Of a stretch of 64,000 nt of DNA, positions 4,461 through 60,702 are shown one piece after another (position 1 is the first letter of the stretch; each line of letters opens with the position of its first letter). This DNA is from Parcubacteria group bacterium Gr01-1014_3 (GTDB lineage Bacteria; Patescibacteriota; Minisyncoccia; UBA6257; WO2-44-18): contig VMGF01000001.1 of NCBI GenBank assembly GCA_007376445.1, positions 188,203 through 252,202 on the forward strand, given 5' to 3'. The position numbers and the translations under genes are program-made. The notes under the pieces were generated by a model that made no database searches, was not told the origin of the DNA, and worked only from the letters and a program-made list of their open reading frames with translations.

Positions 4461-4549
4461 GATTCCCTCCTTATTGTTAATAAACTAGCTCGATTTTACC
4501 ATATTTTTTGCCTTAGGTCAAATGACCGGCTTCATATATAATAGGCATT

Positions 4550-5428
4550 ATGAACCAGCTTAAAACCACTTTACTACTCGGCGGACTGACCGGCCTCCTC
4601 CTCGGCGCCGGATATTATCTCGGCGGGCAAAATGGCCTGACGATGGCTTTGGTTTTGTCTGTTGTGATGAACCTCGGCTCATACTGGTTCTCCGATAAGA
4701 TCGTGCTCGCGATCTACGGAGCTAAAGAAATCCCGCCATCCGACAATCCCCGCTTGCATCAGATGATTGAAAAACTGGCCGCCGAAGCCCAGATGCCAAA
4801 ACCAAGAATTTATCTCGCCAATTTGCCAGTACCAAATGCCTTTGCCACCGGACGGAATAAAAATCACGCCGTGGTTGCCGTCACCCCGGCCATTCTCCAG
4901 CTTTTGGATGAAAAAGAACTGGAAGGCGTACTGGCTCATGAGATTTCGCATATTCAGAACCGGGATATTCTAATATCCAGCATCGCCGCCACGCTGGCTG
5001 GCGCGATTTCTTATCTCGCGCAGATGGCTTATTGGGCCGGTATGTTCGCTGGTGGCCGGAGCGATGATGACCGCCGCGGTAGCCCGATCGGAATGCTGGC
5101 GCTTCTCATTTTAACTCCATTAATCGCTACCCTGCTCCACCTGGCCGTCAGCCGATCCCGCGAATATCAGGCCGACGCGACTGGCGCGAAAATTTCTAAG
5201 AATCCGGAAGGCCTCGCGAGCGCGCTCATCAAACTTCACCAGTCTTCCAAGATGCGTCCGCTCCTCGGCCAACCCCGCCACGCAGCGAGTTTACCCGCCG
5301 AGGTGGGCGCGCATTTGTTTATCGTTAATCCGTTCAAAGCTTCTTTGGTGATGTCGTTATTGTCTACCCACCCACCCGTTGAAGAAAGAGTTAAGCGATT
5401 GCGTGAAATAAAATCACCCACGTACTAA
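4550..5428 (+). CDS. htpX: HtpX-type M48 zinc metalloprotease
   Basis: HEISHIQNRD (HExxH) motif, N-terminal TM helices, C-terminal EYQAD. Confidence 0.85.
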   Translation: MNQLKTTLLLGGLTGLLLGAGYYLGGQNGLTMALVLSVVMNLGSYWFSDKIVLAIYGAKEIPPSDNPRLHQMIEKLAAEAQMPKPRIYLANLPVPNAFATGRNKNHAVVAVTPAILQLLDEKELEGVLAHEISHIQNRDILISSIAATLAGAISYLAQMAYWAGMFAGGRSDDDRRGSPIGMLALLILTPLIATLLHLAVSRSREYQADATGAKISKNPEGLASALIKLHQSSKMRPLLGQPRHAASLPAEVGAHLFIVNPFKASLVMSLLSTHPPVEERVKRLREIKSPTY

Positions 5429-6022: not shown

Positions 6023-6093
6023 GCCCTCGTCGTTCAATGGAAGGACGCAAGATTGCGGATCTTGCAATTGAGGTTCAATTCCTCACGAGGGCA
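6023..6093 (+). tRNA. tRNA-Arg (anticodon GCG as read)
   Basis: Acceptor GCCCTCG/CGAGGGC, anticodon stem CAAGA/TCTTG, loop TTGCGGA, T-arm TGAGG-TTCAATT-CCTCA, discriminator A; extended -10 TTGTATAAT upstream. Confidence 0.7.
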
Positions 6094-6178
6094 CACTTCG
6101 ACAAGCTCAGTGCGAGCACTTCGGAAATCATTACAGAAAACTTGTAGTGAGCAAGGCCGAACTACTCAGTGCGAGCAA
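6094..6178 (+). repeat. tRNA 3'-trailer repeat: 24-nt linker (cacttcgacaagctcagtgcgagc) plus one 59-nt unit
   Basis: Reverse-complement match to the unit of the 3x59-bp tandem array at 10041-10239; same position relative to the tRNA as at the tRNA-Ser locus. Confidence 0.75.
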
Positions 6179-6647: not shown

Positions 6648-6764
6648 TGTTTCATTATACTAAATCTCTACAAAAATCTCTGTAAGATAATTTTAAATTA
6701 TAATTTTTAAATTTAAAATTAAATTAAAATTTCAAAATTTGAAATTGAAAATTATTGATTTAGA

Positions 6765-9343: not shown

Positions 9344-9404
9344 CTCGCCAACTCCTTTGAAGTGCTGAAAATAGCTTAATAGAAATTACGTTAACGGGCA
9401 AATG

Positions 9405-9602
9405 CTATTTTTCCATCCAATTAGCATTCACAAAGCTTTCACGAATTTTATCAGCCTCTGCATTGGTCAAAAATCCCGCAAAACAAGCGAGCATGACAAG
9501 GTTGCCAACGGCGGCGGCCTGTAATCCAAGCTGTTCTCTAAATTTTTCTCTAATTTCTTCCATGCTTGGCTTCTGTTCTGCTGGTTCCATTTTCTCTTTC
9601 AT
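9405..9602 (-). CDS. small hypothetical protein (65 aa)
   Basis: ORF only. Confidence 0.3.
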   Translation of the reverse strand: MKEKMEPAEQKPSMEEIREKFREQLGLQAAAVGNLVMLACFAGFLTNAEADKIRESFVNANWMEK

Positions 9603-9663
9603 TTTTTTAAATTAGTTAATTTATAATATACAGAGATAACGACTAGATGATTGTATCATATTA

Positions 9664-9681
9664 GCGGTGAGGGAGAGATTC
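9664..9681. repeat. 18-bp exact duplicate of the tRNA-Ser 3' end (gcggtgagggagagattc), att-like
   Basis: Identical to 10239-10256 at the tRNA-Ser gene; bounds a ~557-bp insertion. Confidence 0.65.
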
Positions 9682-9719
9682 CCTTCGGCTTTCGGCTCGC
9701 ATTGAGCTCGCCGAAATGC

Positions 9720-10019
9720 TCAGGACAAGTCATCACCCCTCACTAAGACTTCGATAAGCTCAGTACAAATATTATATCCCAATTTTCCATCTATCAACAT
9801 CTGCTTCTTTGCGCGAGACCATCCTTTGATTTGTCTTTCGCGCATCGCGGCTTCATGTTTCCCCGGCCACTGCTCGCAATAGACGAACTTTATATCAGAA
9901 AACTTTTTTGTAAAAAGCGACTTTCCGTTTCTATGCTCTAATAATCTTTCCGTGGGGTTATCTGAGATGCCTACATAAAAAGTTTTCTGATCGCAAAGAA
10001 GCAGGTATACGTGCCACAT
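9720..10019 (-). CDS. stand-alone GIY-YIG nuclease (YhbQ/UPF0213-like)
   Basis: MWHVYLLLCDQKTFYVGISDNPTERLLEHRNGKS shows the GIY...YIG, R and E/N catalytic pattern; the C-terminal 18 aa read through a copy of the dispersed motif. Confidence 0.65.
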   Translation of the reverse strand: MWHVYLLLCDQKTFYVGISDNPTERLLEHRNGKSLFTKKFSDIKFVYCEQWPGKHEAAMRERQIKGWSRAKKQMLIDGKLGYNICTELIEVLVRGDDLS

Positions 10020-10040
10020 TTTAGTTATTCCACAATTGGC

Positions 10041-10239
10041 TTGCACTGAGTAGTTCGGCCTTGCTCACTACAAGTTTTCTGTAATGATTTCCGAAGTGCT
10101 TGCACTGAGTAGTTCGGCCTTGTTCACTACAAGTTTTCTGTAATGATTTCCGAAGTGCTTGCACTGAGTAGTTCGGCCTTGCTCACTACAAGTTTTCTGT
10201 AATGATTTCCGAAGTGCTTGCACTGAGCTTGCCGAAGTG
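10041..10239. repeat. 3 x 59-bp perfect tandem repeats plus a 22-nt partial unit/linker abutting the tRNA-Ser 3' end
   Basis: Unit ttgcactgagtagttcggccttgctcactacaagttttctgtaatgatttccgaagtgc x3 with one C>T in unit 2, then ttgcactgag + cttgccgaagtgc. Confidence 0.9.
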
Positions 10240-10329
10240 CGGTGAGGGAGAGATTCGAACTCTCGATACGGGTTTAAATCCGTATAACAGGTTAGCAACC
10301 TGCCGCCTTCAGCCTCTCGGCCACCTCAC
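10240..10329 (-). tRNA. tRNA-Ser (anticodon GCT), long variable arm
   Basis: Acceptor GGTGAGG/CCTCACC, anticodon loop TTGCTAA, variable arm TTATACGGATTTAAACCCGTATC, T-arm GAGAG-TTCGAAT-CTCTC, discriminator G. Confidence 0.85.
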
Positions 10330-10377
10330 CAAAACTACCATTATACTAGTGCTTTTTCGCCAAAATTAAAAGACCTT

Positions 10378-10647
10378 GCCCATAATCCCGATATCAGCTC
10401 TCGCCGCGTTGTTGGCTACAAATGTTCAGATCGCGAAGAAGTGAATCTGAAGCTGTAGAGGTCTACTGCTAGGATTCATCTTTGAAGCGAGCTGACATTT
10501 TAGCAACAACCCGAAGGGATGCGCGGATTTTAATTCATAACTTTGTTGCTCGGATTCGGAGTAGATTTCCACACCTTCATCCTCGCAACTTCGTTCTGAA
10601 AATAAAATCTGCCGCATCGCGGCAGATATTGATATCGGGATTATGGG
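10378..10647. mobile_element. 270-bp element bounded by perfect 19-bp terminal inverted repeats (GCCCATAATCCCGATATCA); MITE-like
   Basis: Left IR 10378-10396, right IR 10629-10647; carries the rho-independent terminator of the upstream minus-strand gene (atctgccgc-atc-gcggcagat + U-run on the minus strand). Confidence 0.5.
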
Positions 10648-10893
10648 CTACTTGGGTCCTTCTTGATCAGTCTCGGCTTTACATCCTTCGCAAGCACAAT
10701 GCTCGCAATGATCCGCGCCCATCAAAACCCGGATGCCGATAAAAATGATCCCGAACACCATCAGCCCTAAACTGCTGATCATCGGTATGATCGGCGCCTT
10801 GTCGAGTGGCAGACAAAAACCGAAAAGAACGATCAAGCCGACACAGATCATCGTGAATGCGATCCGGAGCAATAGCTCGCCGAAGTTCTTCAT
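10648..10893 (-). CDS. small membrane protein with a C-terminal Cys/His cluster
   Basis: Start MKNFGELLL preceded by AAGAGGTGG; two TM helices; ADHCEHCACEGCKAE tail. Confidence 0.45.
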   Translation of the reverse strand: MKNFGELLLRIAFTMICVGLIVLFGFCLPLDKAPIIPMISSLGLMVFGIIFIGIRVLMGADHCEHCACEGCKAETDQEGPK

Positions 10894-19102: not shown

Positions 19103-19171
19103 TCAAATTTTAAGTTCTAAATTTTTAATTTTAAATTAAATTAAAATTTATAATTAAAAATTTAAAATTCA

Positions 19172-21503: not shown

Positions 21504-24500
21504 TTACTTTCTAACCCCGATCCAGATATCCACGCCGTTTAACTTCGTGGTAATTTCGGCGTCAAACTTATCCGAACGCTTAAAATCAATGGTTTTCGCG
21601 CTGATGTCCTTTTTAAATTCCGCCTCACTTTCTTCGATCGCTTCCCGTACTTCTGGCGGCACTTCCAGCATCAAAAAGATCGGCTCACCGAGCTTATAAC
21701 CGGCTTCCTGCCGCAAACCCTGCACCGCGCGCACCATTTCACGCACCAATCCCTCTCGCTTTAATTCCGCGGTAATTTCAGTGTCTAATTCAACTTCTTC
21801 CTTGATTTTGGAATCTACCACCACTTCTTTCACGTTTACCTCATCAGCCAGAATATATAATAATTCATCATTAATTTTAAATTTAAAATTTTTAATTTTT
21901 AATTTTTGTAGTGGTTGTCGAATTTTTATTCCCGCCTTTTCTCGAGCAGCCAAACCCAGGCTGGCCAGATTGCGGACTTCAGCCATCGCCGCCAAAATAT
22001 CTTTATTGAATAAAGTTTTGTTCAACTCCGGCCAATCCTGTAAATGCACAGAATTACGAATCATGAATGAGGAATTATGCTTTTTGTTTAATTCTTGATT
22101 CTTAATTCTTGATTCTGGATTCAAGGATTGCCACATCGCTTCTCCAAAAAATGGCGCGAATGGCGCGATTAAGCGGCTCATTTCGGTCAGAACCTTCGCT
22201 AGGGTCGCCGAGGCGCCCTTAAAGTCCGATCCCGGATTCTGGAAGCGTTTGCGTGAACGGCGGATGTGCCAACGGGAAAGATCATCTATAAATGATTCCA
22301 ATTCTCTCGCCGCCGGACCGATCTGGAAATTCTCCAGGTCGGTGGTTACTTTATGGGTTACCTCTTCTAATCGCGCCAAGACCCACTGATCTAAGACGTT
22401 CAACTTGCTAATTTCTAGAGTGGTCGCTGATTTATCCGCATAGCTATCCCAGAATACAAAAGAATTATAAAGGATCAGGAAAAACTTCCTCAAAACTTTA
22501 CCAAGATCATTCTCATCGAAACGCTTCGGCTCGCCAGGATCGTTTACGGTGTAGAAATACCAGCGCAAAACATCCGCGCCGTACTTTTGGATCAGCTGAT
22601 GCGGATCAACCACATTTCCCTTCGATTTAGACATCTTCTGCCCATGTTTATCCAGTAAAAGTCCGAGAGAGATCACATTTTTATAAGGCGTGTCTTTTTT
22701 AAGTAAAGTCGCAACCGCTAAAAGTGTATAGAACCAACCTCGCGTCTGATCAATAGCTTCGCAGATATAATCCGCCGGAAACTGCTCTCCTTTATCCAAG
22801 AGATTTTTATTTTCAAACGGATAATGCCACTGCGCGTATGGCATCGCTCCGGAATCGAACCAGACATCCGCCACTTCCTTTACGCGATCCATTTTTTCCT
22901 CGCAGTCTGGGCATTTCAAGGCGACCTCATCGATAAACGGCCGGTGCACGTCCAGTTCGCCGTTCCGGTCAAAAGGCCAGTTGTGAACAGTGATCTTCCG
23001 ATAGTCTCCAGTTTTCGGATATGGCATCTTCTCGGTCTCTTCAGCAGAAACCCCAGCCAACGCTCCCTCCATCACCCAAAGCGGATCGCCGTGGCTGACT
23101 ATTAAAATATTTTTGCCGCTGTGCTGTCCATTTATTTCCCGAACTGCCTCCATCATCCTGGCCCGGATCTGAGAATAATTTTCGCCGTTGGGCGGAGTCT
23201 TTATGAATCGCTCAGCGAAGTTGGCGTAAAACCCAGTATGATCTTTAACCGGCCGGCCGTTAAAGATTCCGGCATTCACCTCGCTTAATCGCTTATCCTT
23301 GATCACCTTGGCTCCAGTGGCTTTGGCGATGATCTTGGCGGTTTGCATCGTTCGAAAATACGGCGAAGCAAAAATCAGATCGATATTCTCCTTTTTTAAT
23401 TCTTTGCCCAATTTTTCCGCGTCTTTTTCGCCTTTCTCGGTTAGCTTAGAAATGTTGTCTCCTTTTTCAGGTCCAGAGGCCACAAAATCTTTTACGTTAT
23501 GATTGGATTCGCAGTGCCGGGCGATGAAAAACTGATTGGCGCTAAGAGCATGCTTATCCAGGTCGGCAAGACCACCAATCACGATCCTCTTCTCACATTT
23601 TTCGGCGGCTTTGCCGGAATGCTCCCAGATTGGTAGAGGCGTACCCCAATAACGCTGACGAGCGATCGCCCAATCTTTAATATCTTTCAACCATTCTCCA
23701 AAACGGCCTTCTTTCAAATGCTCCGGAGTCCAATTTATTTTTTTATTGGCCGCCAAAAGTTCACTCTTCAATTTGCTCATCTCGATAAACCAAGAGTTGC
23801 GAGCAAAATAGATTAGCGGTGTAGAGCAACGCCAACAATGCGGATATTCATGCTCGATAGATGAGGCGGAATAAAGTAGTTTTCGCCCGGTAAGATCGGC
23901 AATGATGTCTTTATCAGCTTCTTTGACGAATTTTCCAGCTCCCGGTAGGCCTTTTTGTACCATACCGCGATCATCGATAGTCACGACAATACTTTCCTGC
24001 CAGTTCTCCCCCTTGGCGTGCTCGCGGAATAAATTAAGATCGTCTTCGCCAAAAGCCGGGGCGATATGAACTAAACCGGTGCCATCTTCGGTAGAAATAA
24101 AGTCGGCCGGTAATACTTCATAGACGCCCTCGGCGCCTTTGAGATCTTTGTGCGGAAAAAGTGGCTCATATTTTTTGCCAACCAGTTTTTTTCCGGAGAT
24201 CTTCTCTACCACCTCCACCTCTATTTTTTTTCCATCCACCTCAACCGACGGCGGATTGCTATATGACCAAAAAAACTCGTTGCCAGCCTTATATTTCGTG
24301 TAAGTCAGCTTCGGATCCACGGCAACGGCCATATTTGCCGGCAAAGTCCACGGCGTGGTTGTCCAAACCAATAAATAAGTATTCTTTTCACCTTTGAGCG
24401 CGAATTTTACGTAGACCGATGGATCTTTAACTTTTTTATATGCACCTGGCTGGCCTAGCTCGTGGCTGGAAAGCGGCGTCTGACAACGCGGACACCACGG

Positions 24501-25040
24501 AACGATCTTATAAAGTTTTTTCAAAAGTCCGCGCTTATTGATCTCGCCAAAAACCCACCACAAAGTTTCGACATAAGAATTCGCGTAGGTAACGTAAGCG
24601 GTATCAAAATCCAGCCAGAGACCGACCCGCTCGGTTAATTTTTCCCACTCGCTTTTATATTTCCAAACTGAATTTTTGGCCTTGGCGTTGAATTCGGCGA
24701 TGCCGAATTTTTCTATCTCGGATTTATTTTTGATGCCGAGTTCTTTTTCCACTTCCAACTCTACCGGCAAACCGTGAGTATCCCAGCCGGCGCGGCGTAG
24801 CACATAGTGCCCGCGCATAGTTTTATAGCGCAAAATGATATCTTTGAAAGCGCGGGTCAGCACGTGGTGCGTCCCCGGGCGGCCGTTAGCCGTCGGCGGC
24901 CCTTCAAAAAACCTGAAAGGTTTTTTGCCCTGAGTCCGCCGAAGGGCTAAAGACTTCTTAAAAATGTCGTTCTCCTTCCAAAATTTGAGGATCTTCTCCT
25001 CGATCTCCGAAAGAATAAGCTGCTTTAATCCACGCAACAT
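21504..25040 (-). CDS. ileS: isoleucyl-tRNA synthetase (type 2) carrying an inserted histidine-phosphatase (PGAM-like) domain
   Basis: GPPTANGRPGTHH (HIGH-class), KMSKSKGN, editing domain, WHYPFENK; 1178 aa with RHCESNHN ... LIVSHG insert between TPLPIW and DVHRPFIDE. Confidence 0.9.
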   Translation of the reverse strand: MLRGLKQLILSEIEEKILKFWKENDIFKKSLALRRTQGKKPFRFFEGPPTANGRPGTHHVLTRAFKDIILRYKTMRGHYVLRRAGWDTHGLPVELEVEKELGIKNKSEIEKFGIAEFNAKAKNSVWKYKSEWEKLTERVGLWLDFDTAYVTYANSYVETLWWVFGEINKRGLLKKLYKIVPWCPRCQTPLSSHELGQPGAYKKVKDPSVYVKFALKGEKNTYLLVWTTTPWTLPANMAVAVDPKLTYTKYKAGNEFFWSYSNPPSVEVDGKKIEVEVVEKISGKKLVGKKYEPLFPHKDLKGAEGVYEVLPADFISTEDGTGLVHIAPAFGEDDLNLFREHAKGENWQESIVVTIDDRGMVQKGLPGAGKFVKEADKDIIADLTGRKLLYSASSIEHEYPHCWRCSTPLIYFARNSWFIEMSKLKSELLAANKKINWTPEHLKEGRFGEWLKDIKDWAIARQRYWGTPLPIWEHSGKAAEKCEKRIVIGGLADLDKHALSANQFFIARHCESNHNVKDFVASGPEKGDNISKLTEKGEKDAEKLGKELKKENIDLIFASPYFRTMQTAKIIAKATGAKVIKDKRLSEVNAGIFNGRPVKDHTGFYANFAERFIKTPPNGENYSQIRARMMEAVREINGQHSGKNILIVSHGDPLWVMEGALAGVSAEETEKMPYPKTGDYRKITVHNWPFDRNGELDVHRPFIDEVALKCPDCEEKMDRVKEVADVWFDSGAMPYAQWHYPFENKNLLDKGEQFPADYICEAIDQTRGWFYTLLAVATLLKKDTPYKNVISLGLLLDKHGQKMSKSKGNVVDPHQLIQKYGADVLRWYFYTVNDPGEPKRFDENDLGKVLRKFFLILYNSFVFWDSYADKSATTLEISKLNVLDQWVLARLEEVTHKVTTDLENFQIGPAARELESFIDDLSRWHIRRSRKRFQNPGSDFKGASATLAKVLTEMSRLIAPFAPFFGEAMWQSLNPESRIKNQELNKKHNSSFMIRNSVHLQDWPELNKTLFNKDILAAMAEVRNLASLGLAAREKAGIKIRQPLQKLKIKNFKFKINDELLYILADEVNVKEVVVDSKIKEEVELDTEITAELKREGLVREMVRAVQGLRQEAGYKLGEPIFLMLEVPPEVREAIEESEAEFKKDISAKTIDFKRSDKFDAEITTKLNGVDIWIGVRK

Positions 25041-27643: not shown

Positions 27644-28087
27644 ATGAGCTTAATAGTAGAAAATAGTAAGGCTTACTTCAACTATGAGATTCTCGAAAAA
27701 TACGAAGCGGGAGTTGAATTGAAGGGGTATGAAGTGAAAGCAGTTAAAGCCGGCCGGGCTCATTTGGCCGGAGCTTTCGCGACCGTCAAAGATAATCAGA
27801 TCTGGCTCACCAACGCCGACATCCAGCCATATCAGCCGAAAAACACCCCCGCCGGCTATGACCATACCCGCCCCCGCCGCCTCCTCTTAAATAGGAAGGA
27901 AATTAACTATCTGATCAGCAAGATGAAGTCCGATAAGTTGACAATAGTGCCTTTAAAGTTGTATAATAAAGGCGGTCGGATCAAGATTGAGCTCGGTTTA
28001 GCTCGCGGCAAGAAGCAATACGAAAAGCGCGAGAAGATCAAAAAACGAGAAGTTCAACGCGAGATCCGGCGCACGTTAAAATCGTAA
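27644..28087 (+). CDS. smpB: SsrA-binding protein SmpB
   Basis: YFNYEILEKYEAGVELKGYEVKA...; Lys/Arg-rich C-tail. Confidence 0.9.
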   Translation: MSLIVENSKAYFNYEILEKYEAGVELKGYEVKAVKAGRAHLAGAFATVKDNQIWLTNADIQPYQPKNTPAGYDHTRPRRLLLNRKEINYLISKMKSDKLTIVPLKLYNKGGRIKIELGLARGKKQYEKREKIKKREVQREIRRTLKS

Positions 28088-28157
28088 CTACGCCAATATA
28101 CTAATCAAGCACTGATATACGAATTCGTATATTCGCGCTATATTCGTATATTAGTGA
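28088..28157. repeat. MITE-like repeat, copy A of a 3-member family (TIR CACTAATATAC / GTATATTRGYG)
   Basis: Reverse-complement similarity to 49234-49325 and 60626-60700; internal ATATACGAATTCGTATAT palindrome. Confidence 0.55.
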
Positions 28158-28165
28158 AGTTTTAG

Positions 28166-29060: not shown

Positions 29061-29564
29061 ATCGCAAATATCCGAATCAACAATCAAATAACGGCTCCAG
29101 AGGTGCGAGTTACCGACGAAATGGCTCAGTTCATTGGCGTAATGCCGATAGCAGGGGCCTTGAAGCTGGCGAAAGAGAAAGGGATGGATCTCATCGAGAT
29201 CGCTCCCACCGCCAAGCCGCCGGTAGTCCGCGTCATGAGCTTCGATAAATTCCGCTATCAGCAGGAGAAGAAGAGAAAGAAGGAGCGCTCCCAGCAGAAA
29301 GTACAGGAATTGAAGCAGATCCAGATCAGCCCGCGCGAAGCTCTCCACGACCTTCAGGTAAAGATGAAAAAGATCGAGGAATTCCTCGCCGAAGGGCATC
29401 AGATCACGATCATCATGGTTTTGAGGGGCCGGGAAAAGGGAAATAAAGATTACGCGATGGGTAAATTAAAAGATTTCGCGAAGATGATCCCAGTTGAATT
29501 CAAAGTGATCATGGAGCCGAAGATCGGCGGACGCGGCATCGCGATGCTAATAACTAAAAAATAG
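29061..29564 (+). CDS. infC: translation initiation factor IF-3 (non-ATG start; exact start uncertain, 29046-29088)
   Basis: IRINNQITAPEVRV... with IF3 N- and C-domain pattern; a terminator hairpin at 29000-29030 excludes the longer track ORF; no in-frame ATG, consistent with infC's usual AUU/AUC-type start. Confidence 0.75.
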   Translation: MANIRINNQITAPEVRVTDEMAQFIGVMPIAGALKLAKEKGMDLIEIAPTAKPPVVRVMSFDKFRYQQEKKRKKERSQQKVQELKQIQISPREALHDLQVKMKKIEEFLAEGHQITIIMVLRGREKGNKDYAMGKLKDFAKMIPVEFKVIMEPKIGGRGIAMLITKK

Positions 29565-29597
29565 TTCGATAAACTCACTATAAATAAAAAAAATAAA

Positions 29598-29799: not shown

Positions 29800-30144
29800 A
29801 TGACCAGAGTCAAACGAGGCGTAGTTGCCCACAAAAAAAGAGAGCGCCGGTTGAAAGCCACTAAAGGCTATCGCTGGGGCCGCAGCACCAAAGAGAAGGC
29901 CGCTAAAGAAGCGCTTACTCATGCTTATACCCACATGTTCCGTGGCCGCAAGGAAAGGAAGCGTGATTTCCGCGCCCTTTGGAATGTGAAGATCAACGCG
30001 GCTATCCGCCCGCTCGGCATGAACTACAATCAGTTCATCTCCGCTCTCAAAAAGAAGAGCATTAAGTTAGATCGTAAGATATTGGCCCATATGGCCGAGT
30101 TCGAACCAAAAGTCTTCGGCAAAGTAGTGGAAGCAGTGAAATAG
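29800..30144 (+). CDS. rplT: ribosomal protein L20
   Basis: MTRVKRGVVAHKKRERRLKATKGYRWGRS... Confidence 0.9.
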   Translation: MTRVKRGVVAHKKRERRLKATKGYRWGRSTKEKAAKEALTHAYTHMFRGRKERKRDFRALWNVKINAAIRPLGMNYNQFISALKKKSIKLDRKILAHMAEFEPKVFGKVVEAVK

Positions 30145-30162
30145 TTCGGCAAAGCTCACTAC

Positions 30163-31852: not shown

Positions 31853-33610
31853 CTACTTTTTCAAGAAACTCAACATCTTCTCTACTGGCCAGGCATTGAT
31901 GATGTCTTTTTTCTCCGCCCAGCCGCGGCGAGCCTGGGCGATGCCATATTCGATAGAAGAGAAATGATTAGCGGTATGCGAATCGGAATCGATCGCCATC
32001 TTCACTCCGGCTTCCACGCATTTCTTGATATATTCGTCTTTAAGATCAGCCCGCTCCGAGGCGTTGATCTCTAGTATAGTACCCGTTTCTTTAGCGACTT
32101 TAATGATCTCATCCATATCTACCGCGTAAGGTTCGCGGCGCTGGAGGATGCGGCCAGTCGGATGGAAAAGAATATCCACGTTCGGATTCCGCATCGCCCG
32201 GACAATACGCGCGGTCTGTTCTTTTTGCGGGAGATTAAAGAGCGAATGTACTGACGCGCCAACCACATCCAACTTCGACAAAATCGAATCCGGCAGATCC
32301 ATTGAGCCGTCCTTCAAAATATCGCATTCACTACCCTTCAAAATTCTTAGTTTTAAGTTTTTAGTTTTTAGTTTTAAGTTTAATGCGTCGATCTCTGCCA
32401 TTTGCTTCAGGATCCGTTTTTCATCCAAGCCATTGGTCATCGCTAGTCGCTTAGTGTGATCCGTAATGGCGATATATTCCAAGCCATCCTTAATTGCCGC
32501 TTCCGCCATCTCTTCGATCGAATTTTCGCCATCGGTCCAGTTGGTCTGAATTTGAAGGTCGCCTTTTATCTCGCCGTATTTGATAAGTTTCGGCAGTCCG
32601 TTGGGTTTACCCTGAGCTTGTCGAAGGGAGGCCTCAATCTCACCCGTCATCTCCCGCATCTCCGGTTCGATATAGTCCATTCCCAACGCCTCATAGATCT
32701 CCTCTTCGGTCTTTCCGGCTATCAGCTTCCCTCGCTTCTCGGCGGTGCCTTTAAAAAGGCCGTATTCGCTCAGAGTTAAGCCTTTTTTGATGGCGATCTG
32801 CCGGAGCGCGACATTGTGGGTTTTAGAACCGGTAAAATAATTTAAAGCTGCTCCATAGGACTCCTCAGGCAAAACCCGCAGATCGGCATTCATGCCATTT
32901 CTTAATTTAACTGACGATTTGGTATCTCCATGCGCTAAAACCTTCAAAACTTCCGGCATCGCCACAAAATAATCCATGATTTCCTTGGGCTTGTCAGAAA
33001 TCACTAAAAAATCAGCGTCGCCAATAGTTTCTTTGCGCCGGCGCGTCGATCCCGCCACCTCAACTCGTTTCACATTATTTAAACCTCTTAGTCGATTCTG
33101 TATTTGTCGGATTCCCGGCATTACGGAACCGATCAAAAATCTCCCGCCGAAGCTTTTAGCAAATCCAATACCCTTTAATATATTTTCCTCGCTCTTCGGA
33201 CCGAAACCGGCTAACTTGCCGATCTTTCCAGCTTTCGCCGCCTTTTCCAGGTCAGCCATATCTTTGATGCCAAGTTTTTGATAAAGCTTTTTAATCCCCT
33301 TTGGTCCAAGTCCTTCTATTTTGGAAAGTTCCGATAAATTAACCGGAGTTTTCTTTTTAAGCTGGTCATAATATTTCAGCTTGCCAGTTTTTAAAAGCTC
33401 TTCGATCTTTTCCGCGATCGACAAACCGACACCCTGAATCTCTTCCACGGCTTTCAGTCCGCCTTTTTTGTAAATTTCCAAAACCGGCTCTTCCAAAGAC
33501 TCGATCACTTGAGCGACTTTCTCATAAGCGCGCGGCTTAAAAGGCACCTCTTGCATCTCTAAGTACTCGCCAACTTCGTATAGAATTTTGGCAATCGAAT
33601 TATTATCCAT
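31853..33610 (-). CDS. polX: family X DNA polymerase with C-terminal PHP domain
   Basis: Pol-beta-like N-terminus with HhH, nucleotidyltransferase motif, C-terminal ITDHT...PHP pattern; contains an in-frame AAGTTTT-repeat insert. Confidence 0.8.
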   Translation of the reverse strand: MDNNSIAKILYEVGEYLEMQEVPFKPRAYEKVAQVIESLEEPVLEIYKKGGLKAVEEIQGVGLSIAEKIEELLKTGKLKYYDQLKKKTPVNLSELSKIEGLGPKGIKKLYQKLGIKDMADLEKAAKAGKIGKLAGFGPKSEENILKGIGFAKSFGGRFLIGSVMPGIRQIQNRLRGLNNVKRVEVAGSTRRRKETIGDADFLVISDKPKEIMDYFVAMPEVLKVLAHGDTKSSVKLRNGMNADLRVLPEESYGAALNYFTGSKTHNVALRQIAIKKGLTLSEYGLFKGTAEKRGKLIAGKTEEEIYEALGMDYIEPEMREMTGEIEASLRQAQGKPNGLPKLIKYGEIKGDLQIQTNWTDGENSIEEMAEAAIKDGLEYIAITDHTKRLAMTNGLDEKRILKQMAEIDALNLKLKTKNLKLRILKGSECDILKDGSMDLPDSILSKLDVVGASVHSLFNLPQKEQTARIVRAMRNPNVDILFHPTGRILQRREPYAVDMDEIIKVAKETGTILEINASERADLKDEYIKKCVEAGVKMAIDSDSHTANHFSSIEYGIAQARRGWAEKKDIINAWPVEKMLSFLKK

Positions 33611-36291: not shown

Positions 36292-37617
36292 TTACCCGGT
36301 CAGACGACCGGGTTTTTTATTTGCTAAAACCAACGCAATCACCAACCACAACATAATTCTTCCGGGCTGAAGAGTCCAAAGAAAGTGATCGAAAAGACCG
36401 AGCAGTAATAATGCCGAGAGCATTGTTGTGGTAATTAGTAATTGGTCATTGGTCATTGGAGCTTTTTTGAAAATTGAAAATTTAAAATTGAAAATTAATA
36501 AACGTCCCAAAAATATCAAAATTGCCAATAACCCTAAAACGCCTACCTCCGACGCTATCAATAAATAGATATTATGTATCGGCTGCCACTGCCAAACTTC
36601 GTTCATGCCAAAGCGCTGATAAACTTCATTTTTGACCGCGTATAAAACCTGATTACCAACACCTACTCCAAGCGGCCGGCTTTTAATAAGTTCAAATGCC
36701 AGCTGGTTATAAGAAATCCTCTGAGTGACAGACGGTTCGCTGACTGAAACCGCCGCGCGCGGAAAAATATACTGCCCGAAGCTAAAGATCAGCAAAATAG
36801 ATATGGCTACTAAAAATATTGCCAAGCGAATACCTTGCCGGAAATTTTCCCTTGAGAAGATCGCCTTGAGTAAGAAAACTGCGAGGATGAATCCGCCGAC
36901 CAGCCAGGCGGCGCGGGAAAACGCCATCACCAATCCCAGCGAAACTGCGAAAATCGGCAAGCCAAATTTAAGATCGCTCAGAATACCATCTTTGCCTGCG
37001 ACGATCGGTCGTTTTAGCCAAAAATAACAGAGAGAGATCAAACCGAGCAATAAAAACGCGGCAAGAATGTTCGGGTGCGGAAATGTGCCGTAAGCCCGGA
37101 GAATCCGGAAACCTTCCACGACGATCTTCGAAGCGCCTCCGATCGTTGGGCCAACTACCGGCTCGCCCAACCAAATAAGTCCCAGGCTTTTTTGGAAAAT
37201 GAACTGACCGAGTGCGATGACCGATTGAATCACGGCCGCGATCGCTATGCCGCCAAATATCCACTCTGTTTTCAAAAATTCTTTTTGAATAAGAATCGCC
37301 GTGGAGACCGCGGCCAGAATCACTAAGAGCAGTCTCGCGAAACTATAAAGGGCGAGCGGCGCGGAAAAAGCGGAGAAAACTGAAATAAAAGCAATCACTA
37401 AAAATCCGGCAATTGAAATATTGGAAAATTTAAAAATTGATTTAAAATTTAAAATTAAAAATTTAAAATTACCAAATACTAAAAGTAATAAAACTAAGTC
37501 GCTCAGATATAGAAAAAAAGACTCGTACTCATCAAACCCCGGCGTGATATGGCCAAGCAGTTTTCTTGTGCCAAAAGTCAGAATAACTATCGAAATATAA
37601 ACTAACCATCGGATCAT
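36292..37617 (-). CDS. O-antigen ligase / Wzy-like polytopic membrane protein
   Basis: About 10 TM helices with a large periplasmic loop; carries two in-frame AT-rich repeat inserts. Confidence 0.55.
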   Translation of the reverse strand: MIRWLVYISIVILTFGTRKLLGHITPGFDEYESFFLYLSDLVLLLLVFGNFKFLILNFKSIFKFSNISIAGFLVIAFISVFSAFSAPLALYSFARLLLVILAAVSTAILIQKEFLKTEWIFGGIAIAAVIQSVIALGQFIFQKSLGLIWLGEPVVGPTIGGASKIVVEGFRILRAYGTFPHPNILAAFLLLGLISLCYFWLKRPIVAGKDGILSDLKFGLPIFAVSLGLVMAFSRAAWLVGGFILAVFLLKAIFSRENFRQGIRLAIFLVAISILLIFSFGQYIFPRAAVSVSEPSVTQRISYNQLAFELIKSRPLGVGVGNQVLYAVKNEVYQRFGMNEVWQWQPIHNIYLLIASEVGVLGLLAILIFLGRLLIFNFKFSIFKKAPMTNDQLLITTTMLSALLLLGLFDHFLWTLQPGRIMLWLVIALVLANKKPGRLTG

Positions 37618-40200: not shown

Positions 40201-41595
40201 CTAAATTATATCATACGAATCCCCCTGGGCTGGAATCTCCACGCTCACCGCGAGATCATCAACCAGCTTCTGCTTTAAGCCAGTTTGATTGTCCGATTCG
40301 CCGTGCGTCAGAAAAACTTTCTTAACTTTCTGCCGAATCGGACCTAGCCACTCTAAAAGCTGGGGCTGGTCGGCATGAGCGGAATAACCGCCGATGGTTT
40401 TGATCTGGCATCGCACCGCGATTTTCTCGCCAAATATAGAAACTTCCTTTTCACCGTTCAAGAGCCGCCGCCCTAGCGTGCCTTCGGCCTGATAGCCGAT
40501 AATCAGCAGGGAATTATTTGGATCGGAAAGATATAGCTTTTCATGATGCAAGATCCGGCCGGCATTAGACATGCCCGCGCCGGCGATGATCACTTTCGGC
40601 GGTGGAACTTTATTAATATGTTTCGATTCCTCGGTAGTCAGGGTCATTCTCAAGCCAGGGAATTTAAAAAGCTCGTCGCCGGACTTCATCTGTTTCATCG
40701 AAGCCGCGTCCCAATATTTATGATGGCGGTTATAAACTTCGGTCAGCTTGATGGCGAGCGGACTATCCAGATAAATCGGTATCTTGGGAATCCGGTCATT
40801 TTCTACCAGCTCGTTCAATTCATATAGAAGCTCTTGGGTGCGCTCCATCGCGAAAGCCGGAATCATCAATATTCCCTTCCGCCGCACGGTATCTTCGATC
40901 ATGTCTTCCAGCACACTTTTCCTTTCCACCATCGGTTCATGAACTCGATTGCCGTAAGTTGATTCAATGACGCAATAATCCACGTCTTCCGGCGGATCCT
41001 GGCGTTTACCGATGATCGGCGCTGGAGAGTTGCCAAGATCTCCGGAGAAAAGAATTTTTATTGCTTGCCCTGAGCCCGTCGAAGGGGCCTCTATAATTAC
41101 AAAAGCGGAGCCCAAAATATGACCGGCGTTATAAAAGGTGACGGTAAATTTCCCAACCTTGGTCGGCTGGAGATATTCGGCGGTCTGCCAGCGAGTCATC
41201 AGCTCCTCTACCTCGCGGATTCCATAGAGATACGGCATTTGAAACCGCTCGGCCGCTTCGATTAGGATATGCTCAGAATCCAAAAGTAAAAGATTTCCGA
41301 AATCTTTGGCTGGCGGAGTGGAAAGAACAGTTCCACGAAAACCATCCCTATAAAGCTTGGGAAGCAAACCGATATGATCCACGTGCGGATGCGTCACGAT
41401 CACCGCGGAAATTTCTTTCGGGTTATACGGAAATGGATCGAAGTTGTGCTTCTCCACGAAACTGCTGCCTTGATGAAGACCGCAATCAATCAAAATCTTT
41501 TCTGGCCCTGAGCCCGTCGAAGGGTCGCCGTCCAGCTCAAGTAAATAATTGGATCCTGTAACTTGCTGTGCCGCCCCGTGAAATGTAAGTTTCAT
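40201..41595 (-). CDS. MBL-fold beta-CASP RNA-metabolising hydrolase, with two 21-nt (7-aa PSTGSG) insertions
   Basis: VTHPHVDHIGLLP metal motif; DPSTGSGP and APSTGSGQ are encoded by copies of the dispersed motif. Confidence 0.7.
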   Translation of the reverse strand: MKLTFHGAAQQVTGSNYLLELDGDPSTGSGPEKILIDCGLHQGSSFVEKHNFDPFPYNPKEISAVIVTHPHVDHIGLLPKLYRDGFRGTVLSTPPAKDFGNLLLLDSEHILIEAAERFQMPYLYGIREVEELMTRWQTAEYLQPTKVGKFTVTFYNAGHILGSAFVIIEAPSTGSGQAIKILFSGDLGNSPAPIIGKRQDPPEDVDYCVIESTYGNRVHEPMVERKSVLEDMIEDTVRRKGILMIPAFAMERTQELLYELNELVENDRIPKIPIYLDSPLAIKLTEVYNRHHKYWDAASMKQMKSGDELFKFPGLRMTLTTEESKHINKVPPPKVIIAGAGMSNAGRILHHEKLYLSDPNNSLLIIGYQAEGTLGRRLLNGEKEVSIFGEKIAVRCQIKTIGGYSAHADQPQLLEWLGPIRQKVKKVFLTHGESDNQTGLKQKLVDDLAVSVEIPAQGDSYDII

Positions 41596-46946: not shown

Positions 46947-47879
46947 TCACGCTTTTTGGCACTTTGGGCAGAAATGCGCGGAACGGCCGCCCATACTAAC
47001 CCGCTTAATTTTCGTCTTACAGCGGAAACAGGGCTCGCCTCCTCGCTGATAAACCAGAAGCTCATTGCCATATTTGCCCTTCATCCCGTCCGTATCACGG
47101 AAATCGCTAGTGGAAGTCCCTCGGAGTTTCAGGGCGCGGGGCAAAATTTTTCGCGTCGCCCTGTATAAGTTTTTAAGTTGGGAAGTTGTAAGTTTATAAG
47201 TTGGTGTCAGGGGGTAAACTTTAGCGAGCCACAATATCTCATTAGCGTAGATGTTGCCAATACCAGCAATAACCTGCTGATCCATTAAAACCTGATAGAT
47301 TTTCTTGCCCTGAGCTTGCCGAAGGGTGGCTCCAAATTTCTCAACTGTAAGATTCGGATCCAGCGCGTCGGGCCCGAGATTCGTCAGCTCTGGCAGATTC
47401 TCGATTTCTTGGACAGAACCGGCAATGACCTTCGCGAATTTCCGCAGATCAGAAAGGGCGAGCATCTTCCCATTATCAAGATATAAAATAAGATGCACGT
47501 ATTTATTATAAGGGTCGGTTATCATAGCCTTCGGTTCCAGTGGAATAACTTCCTGATTCTTGATTCCTGATTCTTTATTCTTGATTCGCCATTTCCCCAC
47601 CAGCATATGCCCGGTCATTTTTTGGTGGACCAAAAGCAGTTTGTCGTGAGTTAAGTAAATTAAAATGTTTTTCGCGCGACGCTTCGCTTCAACGATCTTC
47701 TCGCCCGTCAAAAATTTTTCAAAAACAGCGACGTGCTTATGGGCCACTTTATTTTTGCTCTGATCCAGCGGGTCCTTTATCATCTTCGGCCAATCAAACC
47801 ACGCGCCGGTGATCTTCCGGCCAACTACTTTTTTGTTTAAGTCGTTAACAACCGTTTGTACCTCTGGAAGTTCCGGCAT
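46947..47879 (-). CDS. mutM: formamidopyrimidine-DNA glycosylase
   Basis: MPELPEV N-terminus, H2TH, C-terminal zinc finger CFRC...CPKC; contains two in-frame simple-repeat segments plus one dispersed-motif copy. Confidence 0.85.
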   Translation of the reverse strand: MPELPEVQTVVNDLNKKVVGRKITGAWFDWPKMIKDPLDQSKNKVAHKHVAVFEKFLTGEKIVEAKRRAKNILIYLTHDKLLLVHQKMTGHMLVGKWRIKNKESGIKNQEVIPLEPKAMITDPYNKYVHLILYLDNGKMLALSDLRKFAKVIAGSVQEIENLPELTNLGPDALDPNLTVEKFGATLRQAQGKKIYQVLMDQQVIAGIGNIYANEILWLAKVYPLTPTYKLTTSQLKNLYRATRKILPRALKLRGTSTSDFRDTDGMKGKYGNELLVYQRGGEPCFRCKTKIKRVSMGGRSAHFCPKCQKA

Positions 47880-49225: not shown

Positions 49226-49233
49226 ATATACTC

Positions 49234-49325
49234 CACTAATATACTAATAAAGCGCGAATATACCAATTCTGCTCACTGGTTTGTTTTATAAGTATATTAG
49301 TGCTCGATTCGTATATTGGCGTAGT
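49234..49325. repeat. MITE-like repeat copy B, filling the gap between the two polA-derived genes
   Basis: cactaatatactaat...gtgctcgattcgtatattggcgtag; related to copies A and C. Confidence 0.55.
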
Positions 49326-51935: not shown

Positions 51936-51944
51936 ACGAGCCAA

Positions 51945-54180: not shown

Positions 54181-54305
54181 GTTCTCAACTCGAAAATCCT
54201 TGAATTTTAAATTTCCAATTTTAAATTTTTAATGAATGATTTAATTTTGAAATTTATAAATTAATTTAAAATTAAAAATTTAGAATTTAAAATTATTCAA
54301 AGAAA

Positions 54306-60621: not shown

Positions 60622-60625
60622 ACTC

Positions 60626-60700
60626 CACTAATATACGAATATAGCGCTAATATACTAATACATAAATTCGAATATTCGTGCTTGATTAGTATATTCGTTG
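60626..60700. repeat. MITE-like repeat copy C, filling the convergent PBP / dnaN gap exactly
   Basis: cactaatatacgaatatagcgctaatatactaat...gtgcttgattagtatattcg. Confidence 0.55.
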
Positions 60701-60702
60701 AG

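Follow-up and report, generated by a model that had tools for sequence, protein, structure and literature searches.

The 64-kb stretch of DNA analysed here (the window) contains a tRNA-Ser(GCT) gene whose 3′ end is found twice, once in the gene itself and once on the far side of a small nuclease gene. The question is how the nuclease gene came to lie between the two copies, and whether it moved there as an element of its own. The probable answer is a minimal IS-like mobile element of the Patescibacteria (candidate phyla radiation, CPR), consisting of a single-domain GIY-YIG gene bounded by inverted cognate hairpins. The features of the locus and related copies are given in Table 1.

Table 1. 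Features of the tRNA-Ser element and of related hairpin copies in the window.
Feature	Position	Strand	Basis or remark
tRNA-Ser(GCT), intact target gene	10239/10240–10330	(−)	ARAGORN; Rfam tRNA, 57.1 bits
Left-end hairpin, 23 nt, ACTTCGGCAAGCTCAGTGCAAGC on the tRNA strand	10216–10238	(−)	recurs at other loci
Three tandem 59-nt units	10039–10215	(−)	TRF and repeat search
GIY-YIG nuclease gene, 99 aa, single domain	9720–10019	(−)	Pfam PF01541, E = 2e-13
Third hairpin copy, inside the nuclease coding sequence	9748–9768	(−)	hairpin scan
Right-end hairpin CTTGTCCTGAG[...]CCGAAAGCCGAAGG, inverted relative to the left end	9682–9729	(−)	sequence
Exact 18-nt copy of tRNA-Ser nucleotides 57–74, target-site-duplication-like repeat	9664–9681	(−)	window-wide match search
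Nuclease-less partial copy: left hairpin and one 59-nt unit	6095–6177	(+)	96% identical to 10156–10239
Solo hairpin copy, one of seven dispersed	47305–47329	(+)	hairpin scan; in frame inside a protein-coding gene
Other six solo hairpins	24927–24947, 29561–29581, 30141–30162, 32610–32628, 41068–41086, 41503–41527		

The tRNA-Ser gene terminates in the window with ...CCTCACC-G73-C74 and the element begins right at the next base. The repeated segment, GCGGTGAGGGAGAGATTC, starts midway through the T loop, stops one base beyond the discriminator (tRNA nucleotides 57–74) and shows two exact occurrences in the window (9664–9681 and 10239–10256). When up to three mismatches are allowed there are still two matches vs 0.04 expected, and a duplicate by chance is ruled out. 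A longer repeat that includes the 18-mer is also ruled out because the flanks of the two copies differ. As nucleotides 57–74 are repeated at the far end, the tRNA gene remains whole. The insert between the tRNA end and the 18-nt copy is 557 bp and holds the GIY-YIG gene and the 3 × 59-nt array. No integrase or transposase open reading frame is present between the two 18-nt copies, and the GIY-YIG gene is the sole open reading frame with a domain match inside the element, as it is at other loci examined. Thus a first-pass annotation of this DNA was correct in reporting an exact 18-bp duplicate of the tRNA-Ser 3′ end, an intact tRNA-Ser(GCT), a GIY-YIG gene at 9720–10019 and no integrase or transposase, and the longer unrelated repeat that would have counted against it was not found. 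Elsewhere in the same window, a 51-nt tRNA-His duplication bounds approximately 990 bp.

Two syntenic relatives, L082 and L087, show the tRNA-Ser site empty. In L082 the tRNA-Ser sequence is 100% identical and continues with CCA, and the neighboring 212-aa protein is 87% identical to that of the window. In L087 the gene order is that of the window (UvrC ... tRNA-Ser, CDO_I, 389-aa protein, Ddl ... tRNA-Arg). Both carry tRNA-Ser-CCA followed approximately 45 nt on by the CDO_I gene, and the nuclease gene, the hairpins and the 18-nt copy are all absent at tRNA-Ser in both. The insertion point is directly after tRNA position 74, between C74 and C75 of the encoded CCA. The window also has approximately 300 nt beside the copy (9357–9663), missing in L082 and L087, with a 65-aa open reading frame that is an orphan and finds no homologue except itself; because of this extra segment the distal junction cannot be reconstructed to the base. 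The absence of the element from these two relatives supports an insertion. An insertion at the tRNA 3′ end had been proposed from the sequence, with an empty site in related genomes as a check, and the proposal is borne out both by L082 and L087 and by recurrence of the design behind at least eight tRNA types.

This recurrence is found in a survey of 80 loci with a homologous gene from other Patescibacteria. In at least 34 of the 80, a same-strand tRNA ends 24–120 nt ahead of the nuclease ATG, and the tRNA types found upstream are of at least eight kinds (Asn, Gln, Ser, Glu, Tyr, His, Met, and Arg). Four further loci have an intron-containing tRNA that ARAGORN overlooked. At about 30 loci the 3′ end of the locus's own tRNA recurs exactly (matches of 14 nt or more were counted), typically over 16–20 nt and 12–80 nt past the stop codon; at L034 the copy exactly matches a tRNA 1.9 kb upstream. 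The 3′ ends of tRNA-Asn vary among lineages, and every copy fits its own tRNA. Proteins that are 70–77% identical are found at different tRNAs, and this, like the tRNA-Asn copies, speaks for insertions that took place independently. Nearest-neighbor proteins share the tRNA type in 19 cases and differ in 15, a partial clustering by tRNA. The left-end motif directly follows the tRNA in 24/41 cases with a downstream GIY-YIG gene vs 1/35 of other tRNAs, which rules out the motif as a general tRNA trailer of these bacteria. Element size ranges from 0.33 to 0.56 kb across loci. Approximately 18 loci display just a 6–10-nt tRNA-like end ahead of the left hairpin, and several have other DNA stacked between tRNA and element; stacked insertions at the same tRNA account for some, not all, of the short-end loci. 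The same design behind many different tRNAs looks like a mobile element with tRNA genes as its targets, which are left intact, and mobility of the element is well supported.

An exact direct repeat of a tRNA 3′ end that bounds an insert is also a feature of integrase islands, and the locus could be read as what is left, after decay, of a genomic island that an integrase had inserted, with the 18-nt copy as an old attR. The tRNA-end duplication is the classic integrase signature, and the tRNA-His duplication mentioned above and the DNA stacked between tRNA and element at several loci are in keeping with islands. However, more than 30 independent loci share the 0.33–0.56 kb content, the hairpin ends and the 16–20-nt repeat length, at the loci inspected the interval from tRNA to copy is too short for an integrase, and no integrase was found in the recurrent loci examined. 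Convergence on one design is not expected of random decay, and an island remnant is very improbable.

The ends of the element are repeats in themselves. One and the same hairpin underlies the supposed linker, the dispersed motif and each 59-nt unit; it is inverted at the two element ends and has a covarying stem of 4–5 bp and a conserved loop, GAGCYTGYCGA. What the first-pass annotation took for a 22-nt linker is actually the 23-nt hairpin of the left end, whose stem GCACT/AGTGC takes in tRNA bases G73 and C74. Its three 59-bp units do form a tandem array (TRF period 59 nt, 3.2 copies, 10039–10227, 98% matches) but are not perfect, as unit 2 has one mismatch. The 59-nt unit consists of the left-end motif ACTTCGG...TCAGTGCAAGC with the central CAAGC swapped for 41 nt, and a hairpin scan shows this 41-nt insert to be an oppositely oriented hairpin, GTAGT-GAGCAAGGCCGA-ACTAC. 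The array may have originated by nesting of a hairpin in the loop of another, followed by tandem amplification at the left end. Left-end tandem expansion is found elsewhere, in L002 (3 × 24 nt) and L005, and is visible in the N-terminal extension of P0077. The right-end hairpin overlaps the nuclease stop codon and its loop holds a nested hairpin (9699–9719). Composite right ends are also present in L004, L012 and L043, and most loci have a simple right end, TTTACCCTGAGYTTRCCGAAGG. Of the two motif copies annotated as inverted, the one at 9748–9768 is indeed inverted relative to 10218–10238, has the orientation of the right end and lies inside the coding sequence, where it encodes the conserved C-terminal CTELIEV; the other, at 9699–9719, is direct and is the nested hairpin.

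Pairing of the stem is concluded from covariation, not from folding energy. In 110 distinct hairpins stem pairing is 88.7%, vs 65.3 ± 1.4% for shuffled partners and 41–46% for slid partners, and CG, GC, AT, and TA interchange at stem positions 2–5. A single hairpin is thermodynamically weak (folding energy −3.5 kcal/mol, z = −0.1); a strongly stable hairpin is unsupported, as folding energies are no better than those of shuffles.

Hairpins next to a tRNA might act at the RNA level. The hairpins and 59-nt units would then be tRNA 3′-trailer processing signals, terminators or small RNAs, and the nuclease gene would just use the tRNA promoter. Gene and tRNA are always co-oriented and 25–120 nt apart, the left stem takes in the last tRNA bases, and a promoter scan shows no convincing promoter between tRNA and nuclease gene, with promoter and terminator counts near chance and uninformative. 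This leaves the 18-nt copy and the empty sites unexplained, however, and as the ends are inverted only one hairpin appears in the transcript in its conserved orientation, GAGC...CGA. Left-end stems contain more G.T than A.C (9 vs 2) when read antisense to the transcript, which is weak evidence against an RNA role. In an Rfam search of the trailer only the tRNA scores, with plastid and miRNA matches below threshold, and SsnA, the nuclease of a similar hairpin system, shows no RNA binding (PMC11893778). An RNA-level role is improbable.

The 64-kb window contains 14 hairpins vs 0.74 expected. Five of the seven dispersed hairpins are situated in frame inside protein-coding genes; the host genes are Fpg, a beta-CASP RNase, PolX, and IleRS, and the resulting peptides include ATLRQAQGK, PSTGSGQ, SLRQAQGK, and ALRRTQGK. 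The partial copy of the element is inserted right after C74 of tRNA-Arg(GCG) (6023–6094), and no duplicate of the tRNA-Arg end was found near 6177. In L087 an identical tRNA-Arg is followed by a plain terminator, an empty tRNA-Arg site. The hairpin has spread without the nuclease gene, to tRNA-Arg and into coding sequences.

The nuclease gene is downstream of tRNA-Ser and on the strand of the tRNA. The Pfam GIY-YIG domain covers residues 1–72 and is followed by one C-terminal helix (Pfam; AlphaFold2), and the AlphaFold2 model of the 99-aa protein (pLDDT 87) displays an alpha/beta GIY-YIG fold. Best Foldseek matches to the model are the UPF0213 proteins 1zg2 and 1ywl and the Slx1 nuclease domain; in a profile search 1zg2 is matched at E = 1e-9. 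The 99-aa query yields 411 homologues, of which the best 120 are 60–87% identical. Catalytic residues are conserved throughout an alignment of 25 sequences, in which Y5, Y15, G17, R25, H29 and E61 are invariant. The best matches outside the CPR are entries annotated as GIY-YIG nuclease family protein (36–40% identity, E = 2e-10 to 5e-10), and the only Neisseria match examined, from a plasmid collection, is a UPF0213-like protein and not SsnA. NCBIfam and PHROGs give no match for the nuclease and no homing-endonuclease match. A phage element is ruled out since viral contigs give just one partial match. The element has no HUH-Y1 transposase open reading frame, its protein being GIY-YIG, and the 99-aa protein does not carry the extra DNA-binding domain of the homing GIY-YIG type.

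The last point bears on the proposal of a free-standing homing endonuclease gene that cuts empty tRNA alleles and is copied by double-strand-break repair. Here the 18-nt copy would be left over from a single illegitimate event that founded each tRNA type, and would later be co-converted with the gene. Proteins do group partly by tRNA type (Asn, Met, Gln, Ser(CGA)), the tRNA-Ser site is polymorphic for filled and empty states, and T4 SegB, a GIY-YIG homing endonuclease, targets a tRNA gene region (PMC2330249). But homing makes no target duplications, and each copy fits the tRNA of its own lineage despite the differing tRNA-Asn ends. Homing GIY-YIG enzymes typically have the DNA-binding domain that the 99-residue protein lacks, and the inverted hairpin ends and the gene-less copies elsewhere also argue against homing, which appears rather unlikely.

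Gene-less hairpins at tRNA-Arg and inside coding sequences are consistent with a cassette that is moved in trans by another enzyme, such as a recombinase or hairpin-acting host repair. The GIY-YIG protein would be cargo, or a domesticated Ssn-like single-stranded DNA (ssDNA) nuclease that serves the host, for instance in the control of recombination or of incoming DNA; for Neisseria SsnA, domestication and a modulating effect on transformation have been proposed (PMC11893778). Integration is also not accounted for by GIY-YIG chemistry alone. Against this, all full elements, in many lineages, carry this single gene and nothing more, there is no candidate recombinase nearby, and the hairpin copy embedded in the conserved C-terminal coding sequence indicates co-evolution of hairpin and nuclease. 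Mobilisation in trans is distinctly unlikely.

For the IS-like element, which remains the preferred reading, we infer that the nuclease itself drives insertion. By analogy with SsnA, it would bind its own hairpins as ssDNA and nick close by. The nuclease, or a recruited host factor, would nick each strand of the tRNA gene once, one strand in the T loop and the opposite one after C74; these two predicted nick sites bound the 3′ strand of the acceptor/T-arm helix. The 18-nt stagger would be filled by repair synthesis to give the duplication, and the nuclease gene would be expressed by read-through from the tRNA promoter. GIY-YIG enzymes cleave DNA by hydrolysis and none is known to catalyse strand transfer, which leaves the joining step unaccounted for. 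The weak single hairpins, the unclean distal junction, the tRNA-Arg copy without duplication and the approximately 18 short-end loci count against the preferred reading. The partial clustering of proteins by tRNA type is also compatible with homing. A more specific proposal, put forward tentatively, is that this is the first IS-like family with a nuclease of about 95 residues, of the GIY-YIG type, as its only protein. The nuclease would recognise ssDNA in folded form, both at the hairpin ends of the element and at the acceptor/T-arm of tRNA genes. Insertion would take place after tRNA position 74, with an 18-nt duplication that preserves the tRNA, and 20–27-nt hairpins would also be seeded in frame into essential genes.

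A mobile element of this design appears undescribed; a literature search, with thin coverage of subscription journals, turned up neither tRNA-linked GIY-YIG elements nor the 18-nt duplication. If insertion is driven by the nuclease itself, the elements (0.33–0.56 kb) would rank with the smallest autonomous mobile elements known to us and would use a fold not known as a transposase. Ssn-type nucleases would gain a mobility function, and prokaryotic transposition a new enzyme class. In tiny gene-dense genomes, duplication of the tRNA 3′ end would be a safe landing in which the gene survives and its promoter is borrowed. The element has a bearing on the many stand-alone GIY-YIG genes of Patescibacteria, given the number of homologues from one query, and accounts for open reading frame calls that cross tRNA genes (P0077) and for the recurring peptides LRQAQGK and PSTGSGQ within otherwise conserved proteins. 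It also offers a testable natural role for Ssn-type nucleases, which are of interest as programmable ssDNA cutters, and the tRNA acceptor/T-arm is a defined target that may be exploitable for site-specific insertion.

Several known systems share part of this design. In homing GIY-YIG genes (T4 SegB, I-TevI) the nuclease gene also acts as selfish DNA, and SegB lies within a tRNA gene cluster that it also cuts (PMC2330249), but these enzymes have a C-terminal DNA-binding domain, and their spread by break repair involves neither inverted ends nor a target duplication. REP/RAYT and IS200/IS605 systems likewise place a small gene between hairpins that also multiply alone, with recognition of ssDNA hairpins, as predicted for the element here; their fold, however, is HUH-Y1 and they show neither target duplication nor tRNA targeting. 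Rickettsia palindromic elements (approximately 100–150 bp, with no associated nuclease gene described) are short palindromic repeats found in frame within protein-coding genes, as are the dispersed hairpins. Integrase islands and casposons at tRNA 3′ ends keep the gene intact by a direct repeat of the tRNA end, and casposon duplications are about 14–15 bp, some at tRNA-Pro. The element here is 10 to 100 times smaller and has no integrase or Cas1. By description, the non-intron insertions that encode GIY-YIG proteins in CPR rRNA genes, mostly at stem-loops (Tsurumaki et al., J Bacteriol 2024, PMC11270868), are similar in bacterial group, GIY-YIG open reading frames, non-intron nature and a structured-RNA gene as target, but the target is rRNA and hairpin ends or duplications are not reported.

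The closest known system, judged from its published description, is Ssn with its NTS/SRM hairpin repeats (cd10448), a family of single-domain GIY-YIG ssDNA nucleases with cognate hairpins on both gene flanks (Chenal et al., Nat Commun 2025, PMC11893778). Membership is set at E < 1e-10 to N. meningitidis SsnA, and what counts in NTS hairpins is the sequence of the stem, not the loop (PMC11893778). The hairpin here differs in its conserved loop and covarying stem, and the element differs in that it is inserted at tRNA 3′ ends with an 18-nt duplication; the Ssn paper does not use the word tRNA and describes neither tRNA targeting nor an 18-nt duplication (PMC11893778). The SRM consensus HGTCWYN(0-2)YYVSBRHN(0-5)WNVSBRGN(0-2)RNCYNB has 0 matches in the window, both strands included, and none beside the homologues in Sphingomonas and Planktothrix plasmids, where the adjoining hairpins are of the stem-(T)GAG...CGA-stem type, as here. 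The likeness extends to a single-domain protein of approximately 94–99 aa with no added DNA-binding domain, to the catalytic Tyr/Tyr/Glu (Y6, Y17, E64 in SsnA; Y5, Y15, E61 here), and to inverted hairpin repeats that are found at both sides of the gene and dispersed in the genome. Proteins of the SsnA type cleave ssDNA and bind the hairpins on either side of their genes, and the NTS-ssnA-NTS arrangement has been likened to an insertion sequence by its authors (PMC11893778).

The 557-bp element (9682-10238) at the 3′ end of tRNA-Ser(GCT) is bounded by two copies of the 18-mer GCGGTGAGGGAGAGATTC. In the window (G+C 45.9%) this sequence occurs exactly twice, at 10239-10256 and at 9664-9681, and no third match is found even at 3 mismatches (0.04 expected). 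Read on the tRNA strand it is GAATCTCTCCCTCACCGC, tRNA positions 57-74. It starts midway through the T loop, runs along the 3′ side of the T and acceptor stems and takes in the discriminator plus one extra C. Searches for tRNA and Rfam genes, repeats, open reading frames and domains show that the first-pass annotation had the coordinates and content of the element right, with small corrections only.

Two relatives, L082 and L087, keep the neighbouring genes and do not carry the element. L082 matches the window at 87% identity in a neighbouring 212-aa protein and at 100% in the tRNA-Ser; its empty site reads ...CCCTCACCGC-CAATGTTTCC..., with the start codon of the CDO-like neighbour gene CDO_I ~45 nt further on. 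L087 displays the gene order UvrC, 162-aa, tRNA-Ser(GCT), CDO_I, 389-aa, Ddl, 155-aa, tRNA-Arg(GCG), and its empty site, ...CGCCTCCG-CCAATGTCCC..., is also ~45 nt ahead of CDO_I. The window junctions are CACCGC/ACTTCGG... at the tRNA and CACCGC/TAATATG... past the copy; thus the element entered an ancestrally encoded CCA between its C74 and C75. On the tRNA side the junction is exact; on the far side, an extra ~300 nt in the window prevents reconstruction to the base. The tRNA-Ser element is therefore an insertion after position 74 with an 18-nt repeat of positions 57-74, and the earlier proposal of an insertion is supported by both the two syntenic empty sites and recurrence at many tRNAs.

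There are other differences in this region. The ~300 nt between the 18-nt copy and CDO_I (9357-9663) are missing from L082 and L087; a 65-aa open reading frame within them (9405-9602) matched only itself in a database search. Upstream of tRNA-Ser is a 34-nt inverted repeat with arms at 10378-10411 and 10615-10648. L082 has no counterpart of 10411-10575, a stretch between the arms, which may therefore be another small insertion.

The GIY-YIG protein has 411 homologues, with 60-87% identity among the 120 matches listed; the few listed homologues with a named source are all from Patescibacteria. In at least 34 of 80 loci examined, from species-representative genomes, a tRNA on the same strand ends 24-120 nt ahead of the nuclease start codon. 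These tRNAs are Asn(GTT), Gln(TTG, CTG), Ser(GGA, TGA, CGA, ACT), Glu(CTC, TTC), Tyr, His, Met and Arg(TCT), and the element thus has many tRNA targets. In four more loci the gene is closely preceded by a group I intron, after which come a T arm and an acceptor end; these are intron-containing tRNAs, missed by ARAGORN because the introns interrupt them. At ~30 loci an exact repeat of the final 16-20 nt of the locus's own tRNA lies 12-80 nt past the stop codon; an exact 16-nt match within 400 nt is estimated to arise by chance about once per million trials. The tRNA-Asn 3′ ends vary among L001, L007, L008, L011, L012, L017, L018 and L021, and every copy fits its own tRNA, as would be expected from independent insertions that each duplicate the local target. 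Proteins 70-77% identical occupy different tRNAs: the protein of the window is at Ser(GCT) and its nearest relatives at Ser(GGA), Gln and Ser(TGA), and an Arg(TCT) protein pairs with a Glu(CTC) protein. Some protein clades are tied to a single tRNA type. Together these data are strong evidence for mobility of the element. A decayed integrase island is a rival explanation; the junction regions examined offer no space where an integrase could lie between tRNA and copy.

Other loci are less simple. In ~18, all that stands before the left (tRNA-proximal) hairpin is a 6-10-nt piece of a tRNA-like acceptor end, and the T arm is lacking. The right-hand copy in L014 fits a tRNA 1.2 kb upstream with one extra G, and that in L034 fits a tRNA 1.9 kb upstream exactly; thus other DNA is stacked between tRNA and element. 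L014, L027 and L034 all display stacked insertions at one tRNA, the right-hand copy matching a tRNA 1-3 kb upstream. The repeat of L027 (1492-1620, about 4740-4800) runs at least 45 nt past the tRNA end, which is not accounted for by the model proposed below.

The window also carries, after tRNA-His, a ~990-bp insertion with two open reading frames, 711-1272 (187 aa) and 1314-1616 (100 aa), neither with a Pfam match. It is bounded by a copy of the 3′ part of tRNA-His at 1611-1661 (51 nt, 98% identical). No integrase is found in 547-1661, and this is a second integrase-less insertion at a tRNA. Thus tRNA 3′ ends are general landing sites in the Gr01-1014_3 genome.

At the loci examined, the tRNA end is directly followed by ACTTCGGCAAGCTCAGTGCAAGC or a close variant, and (T)TTACCCTGAGYTTRCCGAAGG, an inverted repeat of this left motif, directly precedes the copy. 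The left motif is found after 24 of 41 tRNAs with a nuclease gene no more than 500 nt downstream, but after only 1 of 35 other tRNAs at the same loci. It is therefore element-specific, and a general tRNA trailer is ruled out. This motif is a hairpin whose 4-5 bp stem encloses the loop GAGC(T/C)TG(C/T)CGA. Pairing at stem positions 1-4 reaches 89-97% among 110 distinct copies; CG, GC, AT and TA interchange at positions 2-5, and pairing at positions 6-8 drops to a background of 30-39%. Overall stem pairing is 88.7%, against 65.3 +/- 1.4% with partners shuffled among sequences (maximum 70.0%, 500 shuffles) and 41-46% with slid partners. The ends of the element are thus inverted hairpins with covarying stems, the outer pairs recruiting the last tRNA bases at the left end and the first copy bases at the right. 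Folding detected no thermodynamic stability for the hairpins alone. An alternative is that the hairpins act chiefly as RNA; left-end stems, read antisense to the transcript, show G.T 9 times versus A.C twice, a weak hint at folding in DNA rather than in RNA.

Features of the tRNA-linked elements and hairpins (window positions unless a locus is named)
Feature	Position	Strand	Remarks
tRNA-Ser(GCT)	10239-10330	minus	ARAGORN and Rfam; 3′ end towards lower coordinates
Left hairpin	10216-10238
GIY-YIG gene, 99 aa	9720-10019		PF01541, E = 2e-13; sole domain-matching open reading frame within the 557 bp
Third hairpin copy	9748-9768		Codes for conserved C-terminal CTELIEV
Right end	9682-9729		CTTGTCCTGAG[CATTTCGGCGAGCTCAATGCGAG]CCGAAAGCCGAAGG; hairpin nested within another hairpin
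Nuclease-less left hairpin plus one 59-nt unit	6095-6177		Right after C74 of tRNA-Arg(GCG) (6023-6094)
In-frame hairpin, IleRS	24927-24947		Encodes ALRRTQGK
In-frame hairpin, PolX	32610-32628		Encodes SLRQAQGK
In-frame hairpins (two), beta-CASP RNase	41068-41086, 41503-41527		Encode APSTGSGQ, GDPSTGSGP
In-frame hairpin, Fpg	47305-47329		Encodes ATLRQAQGK
tRNA-His	547-620	+
Group I introns within tRNA genes bearing a 3′-end element	L008, L019, L026, L054: about 4500-4910

In the tRNA-Ser element, what had been described as a 22-nt linker is present but is the left hairpin. The adjoining 59-nt tandem array (3.2 copies, 98%) lies inside the element. Its unit consists of ACTTCGG, 41 nt and TCAGTGCAAGC, i.e. 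the left motif with its centre swapped for a segment bearing an oppositely oriented hairpin, GTAGT-GAGCAAGGCCGA-ACTAC. Tandem expansion of the left end is also seen in L002 (3 x 24 nt) and L005 (a degenerate triple), and the composite nested right end in L004, L012 and L043. It shows as well in the homologous protein P0077, whose N-terminal extension contains translated motif repeats, its open reading frame call crossing the tRNA.

Hairpins also occur without the nuclease gene. The stretch after tRNA-Arg is 96% identical to the tRNA-Ser copy; L087 has an identical tRNA-Arg followed by an ordinary terminator, in whose place this stretch stands. Neither a nuclease gene nor a duplicate of the tRNA-Arg end is found there in the window. 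Derivatives of the element without the nuclease gene thus exist. The window contains 14 hairpins versus 0.74 expected. Seven are further dispersed copies, five of them in frame within protein-coding genes, resembling the palindromic elements inside Rickettsia genes. The apparent IleRS, a class I tRNA synthetase (21504-25040, minus strand), also contains a His_Phos_1 histidine-phosphatase domain at residues 505-677, inside the synthetase. Other repeats in the window are an AT-rich palindromic family (28084-28161, 49226-49328, 60618-60706; one copy just upstream of the tmRNA gene) and dispersed AAATTTT-like tracts between genes, with a period of 7 nt (6688-6754, 19105-19169, 37425-37470, 54203-54294).

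Residues Y5, Y15, G17, R25, H29 and E61 are invariant in the homologue alignment. The AlphaFold2 model (pLDDT 87) shows a GIY-YIG core and a single C-terminal helix, with no second domain in the 99 aa; among solved structures the model comes closest to two uncharacterised UPF0213 proteins, BH0048 and EF2693, and to the nuclease domain of Slx1. A second, divergent GIY-YIG open reading frame (51639-51944, minus strand; 31% identity) has a weak likeness to homing-endonuclease N-termini and no tRNA nearby.

In the mechanism we infer, the nuclease would recognise two structures in single-stranded DNA, its own hairpins and the folded acceptor/T-arm of the tRNA gene. One strand would be nicked in the T loop and the other after C74, at the points where the 3′ strand of the acceptor/T-arm helix begins and ends, and filling in of the stagger would produce the 18-nt repeat. 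The scheme does not cover the joining of element and target, since GIY-YIG enzymes hydrolyse DNA and are not known to carry out strand transfer. Rival explanations are homing via break repair, and a mobilisation in trans in which the nuclease is cargo or has been domesticated. The constant co-orientation 25-120 nt downstream of the tRNA suggests that the nuclease gene may be expressed by read-through; a promoter scan speaks neither for nor against this.

Judged by description, the closest described system is Ssn, whose single-domain GIY-YIG proteins (about 94 aa, cd10448) bind NTS/SRM hairpin repeats only as single-stranded DNA and cut a few nucleotides off (PMC11893778). These hairpins flank the nuclease gene and are scattered through the genome, and the authors liken NTS-ssnA-NTS to an insertion sequence and suggest domestication (PMC11893778). 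What counts in NTS is the sequence of the stem, not the loop; the reverse holds for the tRNA-linked hairpins. The published SRM consensus has no match in the window, and the word tRNA is absent from that paper. Homologues on a Sphingomonas plasmid (L085) and a Planktothrix plasmid (L086), 36-40% identical (E about 1e-10), have stem-(T)GAG...CGA-stem hairpins on their flanks as in the window (L085 1350-1500, 1780-1810; L086 1380-1900). These hairpins, CTTCGACTTCGCTCAG and TGTCATTCTGAG...CGAAGAATC, include a tandem array and do not match the SRM consensus. Thus the pairing of protein and hairpin reaches beyond Patescibacteria. In CPR rRNA genes, GIY-YIG open reading frames are found in non-intron insertions and most insertions are at stem-loops (PMC11270868, where tRNA is unmentioned), which is compatible with a preference for structured-RNA genes. 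The literature searched, which covers few subscription journals, yielded no description of tRNA-linked GIY-YIG elements, and an earlier one may exist. The element represents a new form of the GIY-YIG-plus-hairpin module, one that targets tRNAs and is Ssn-like by description.
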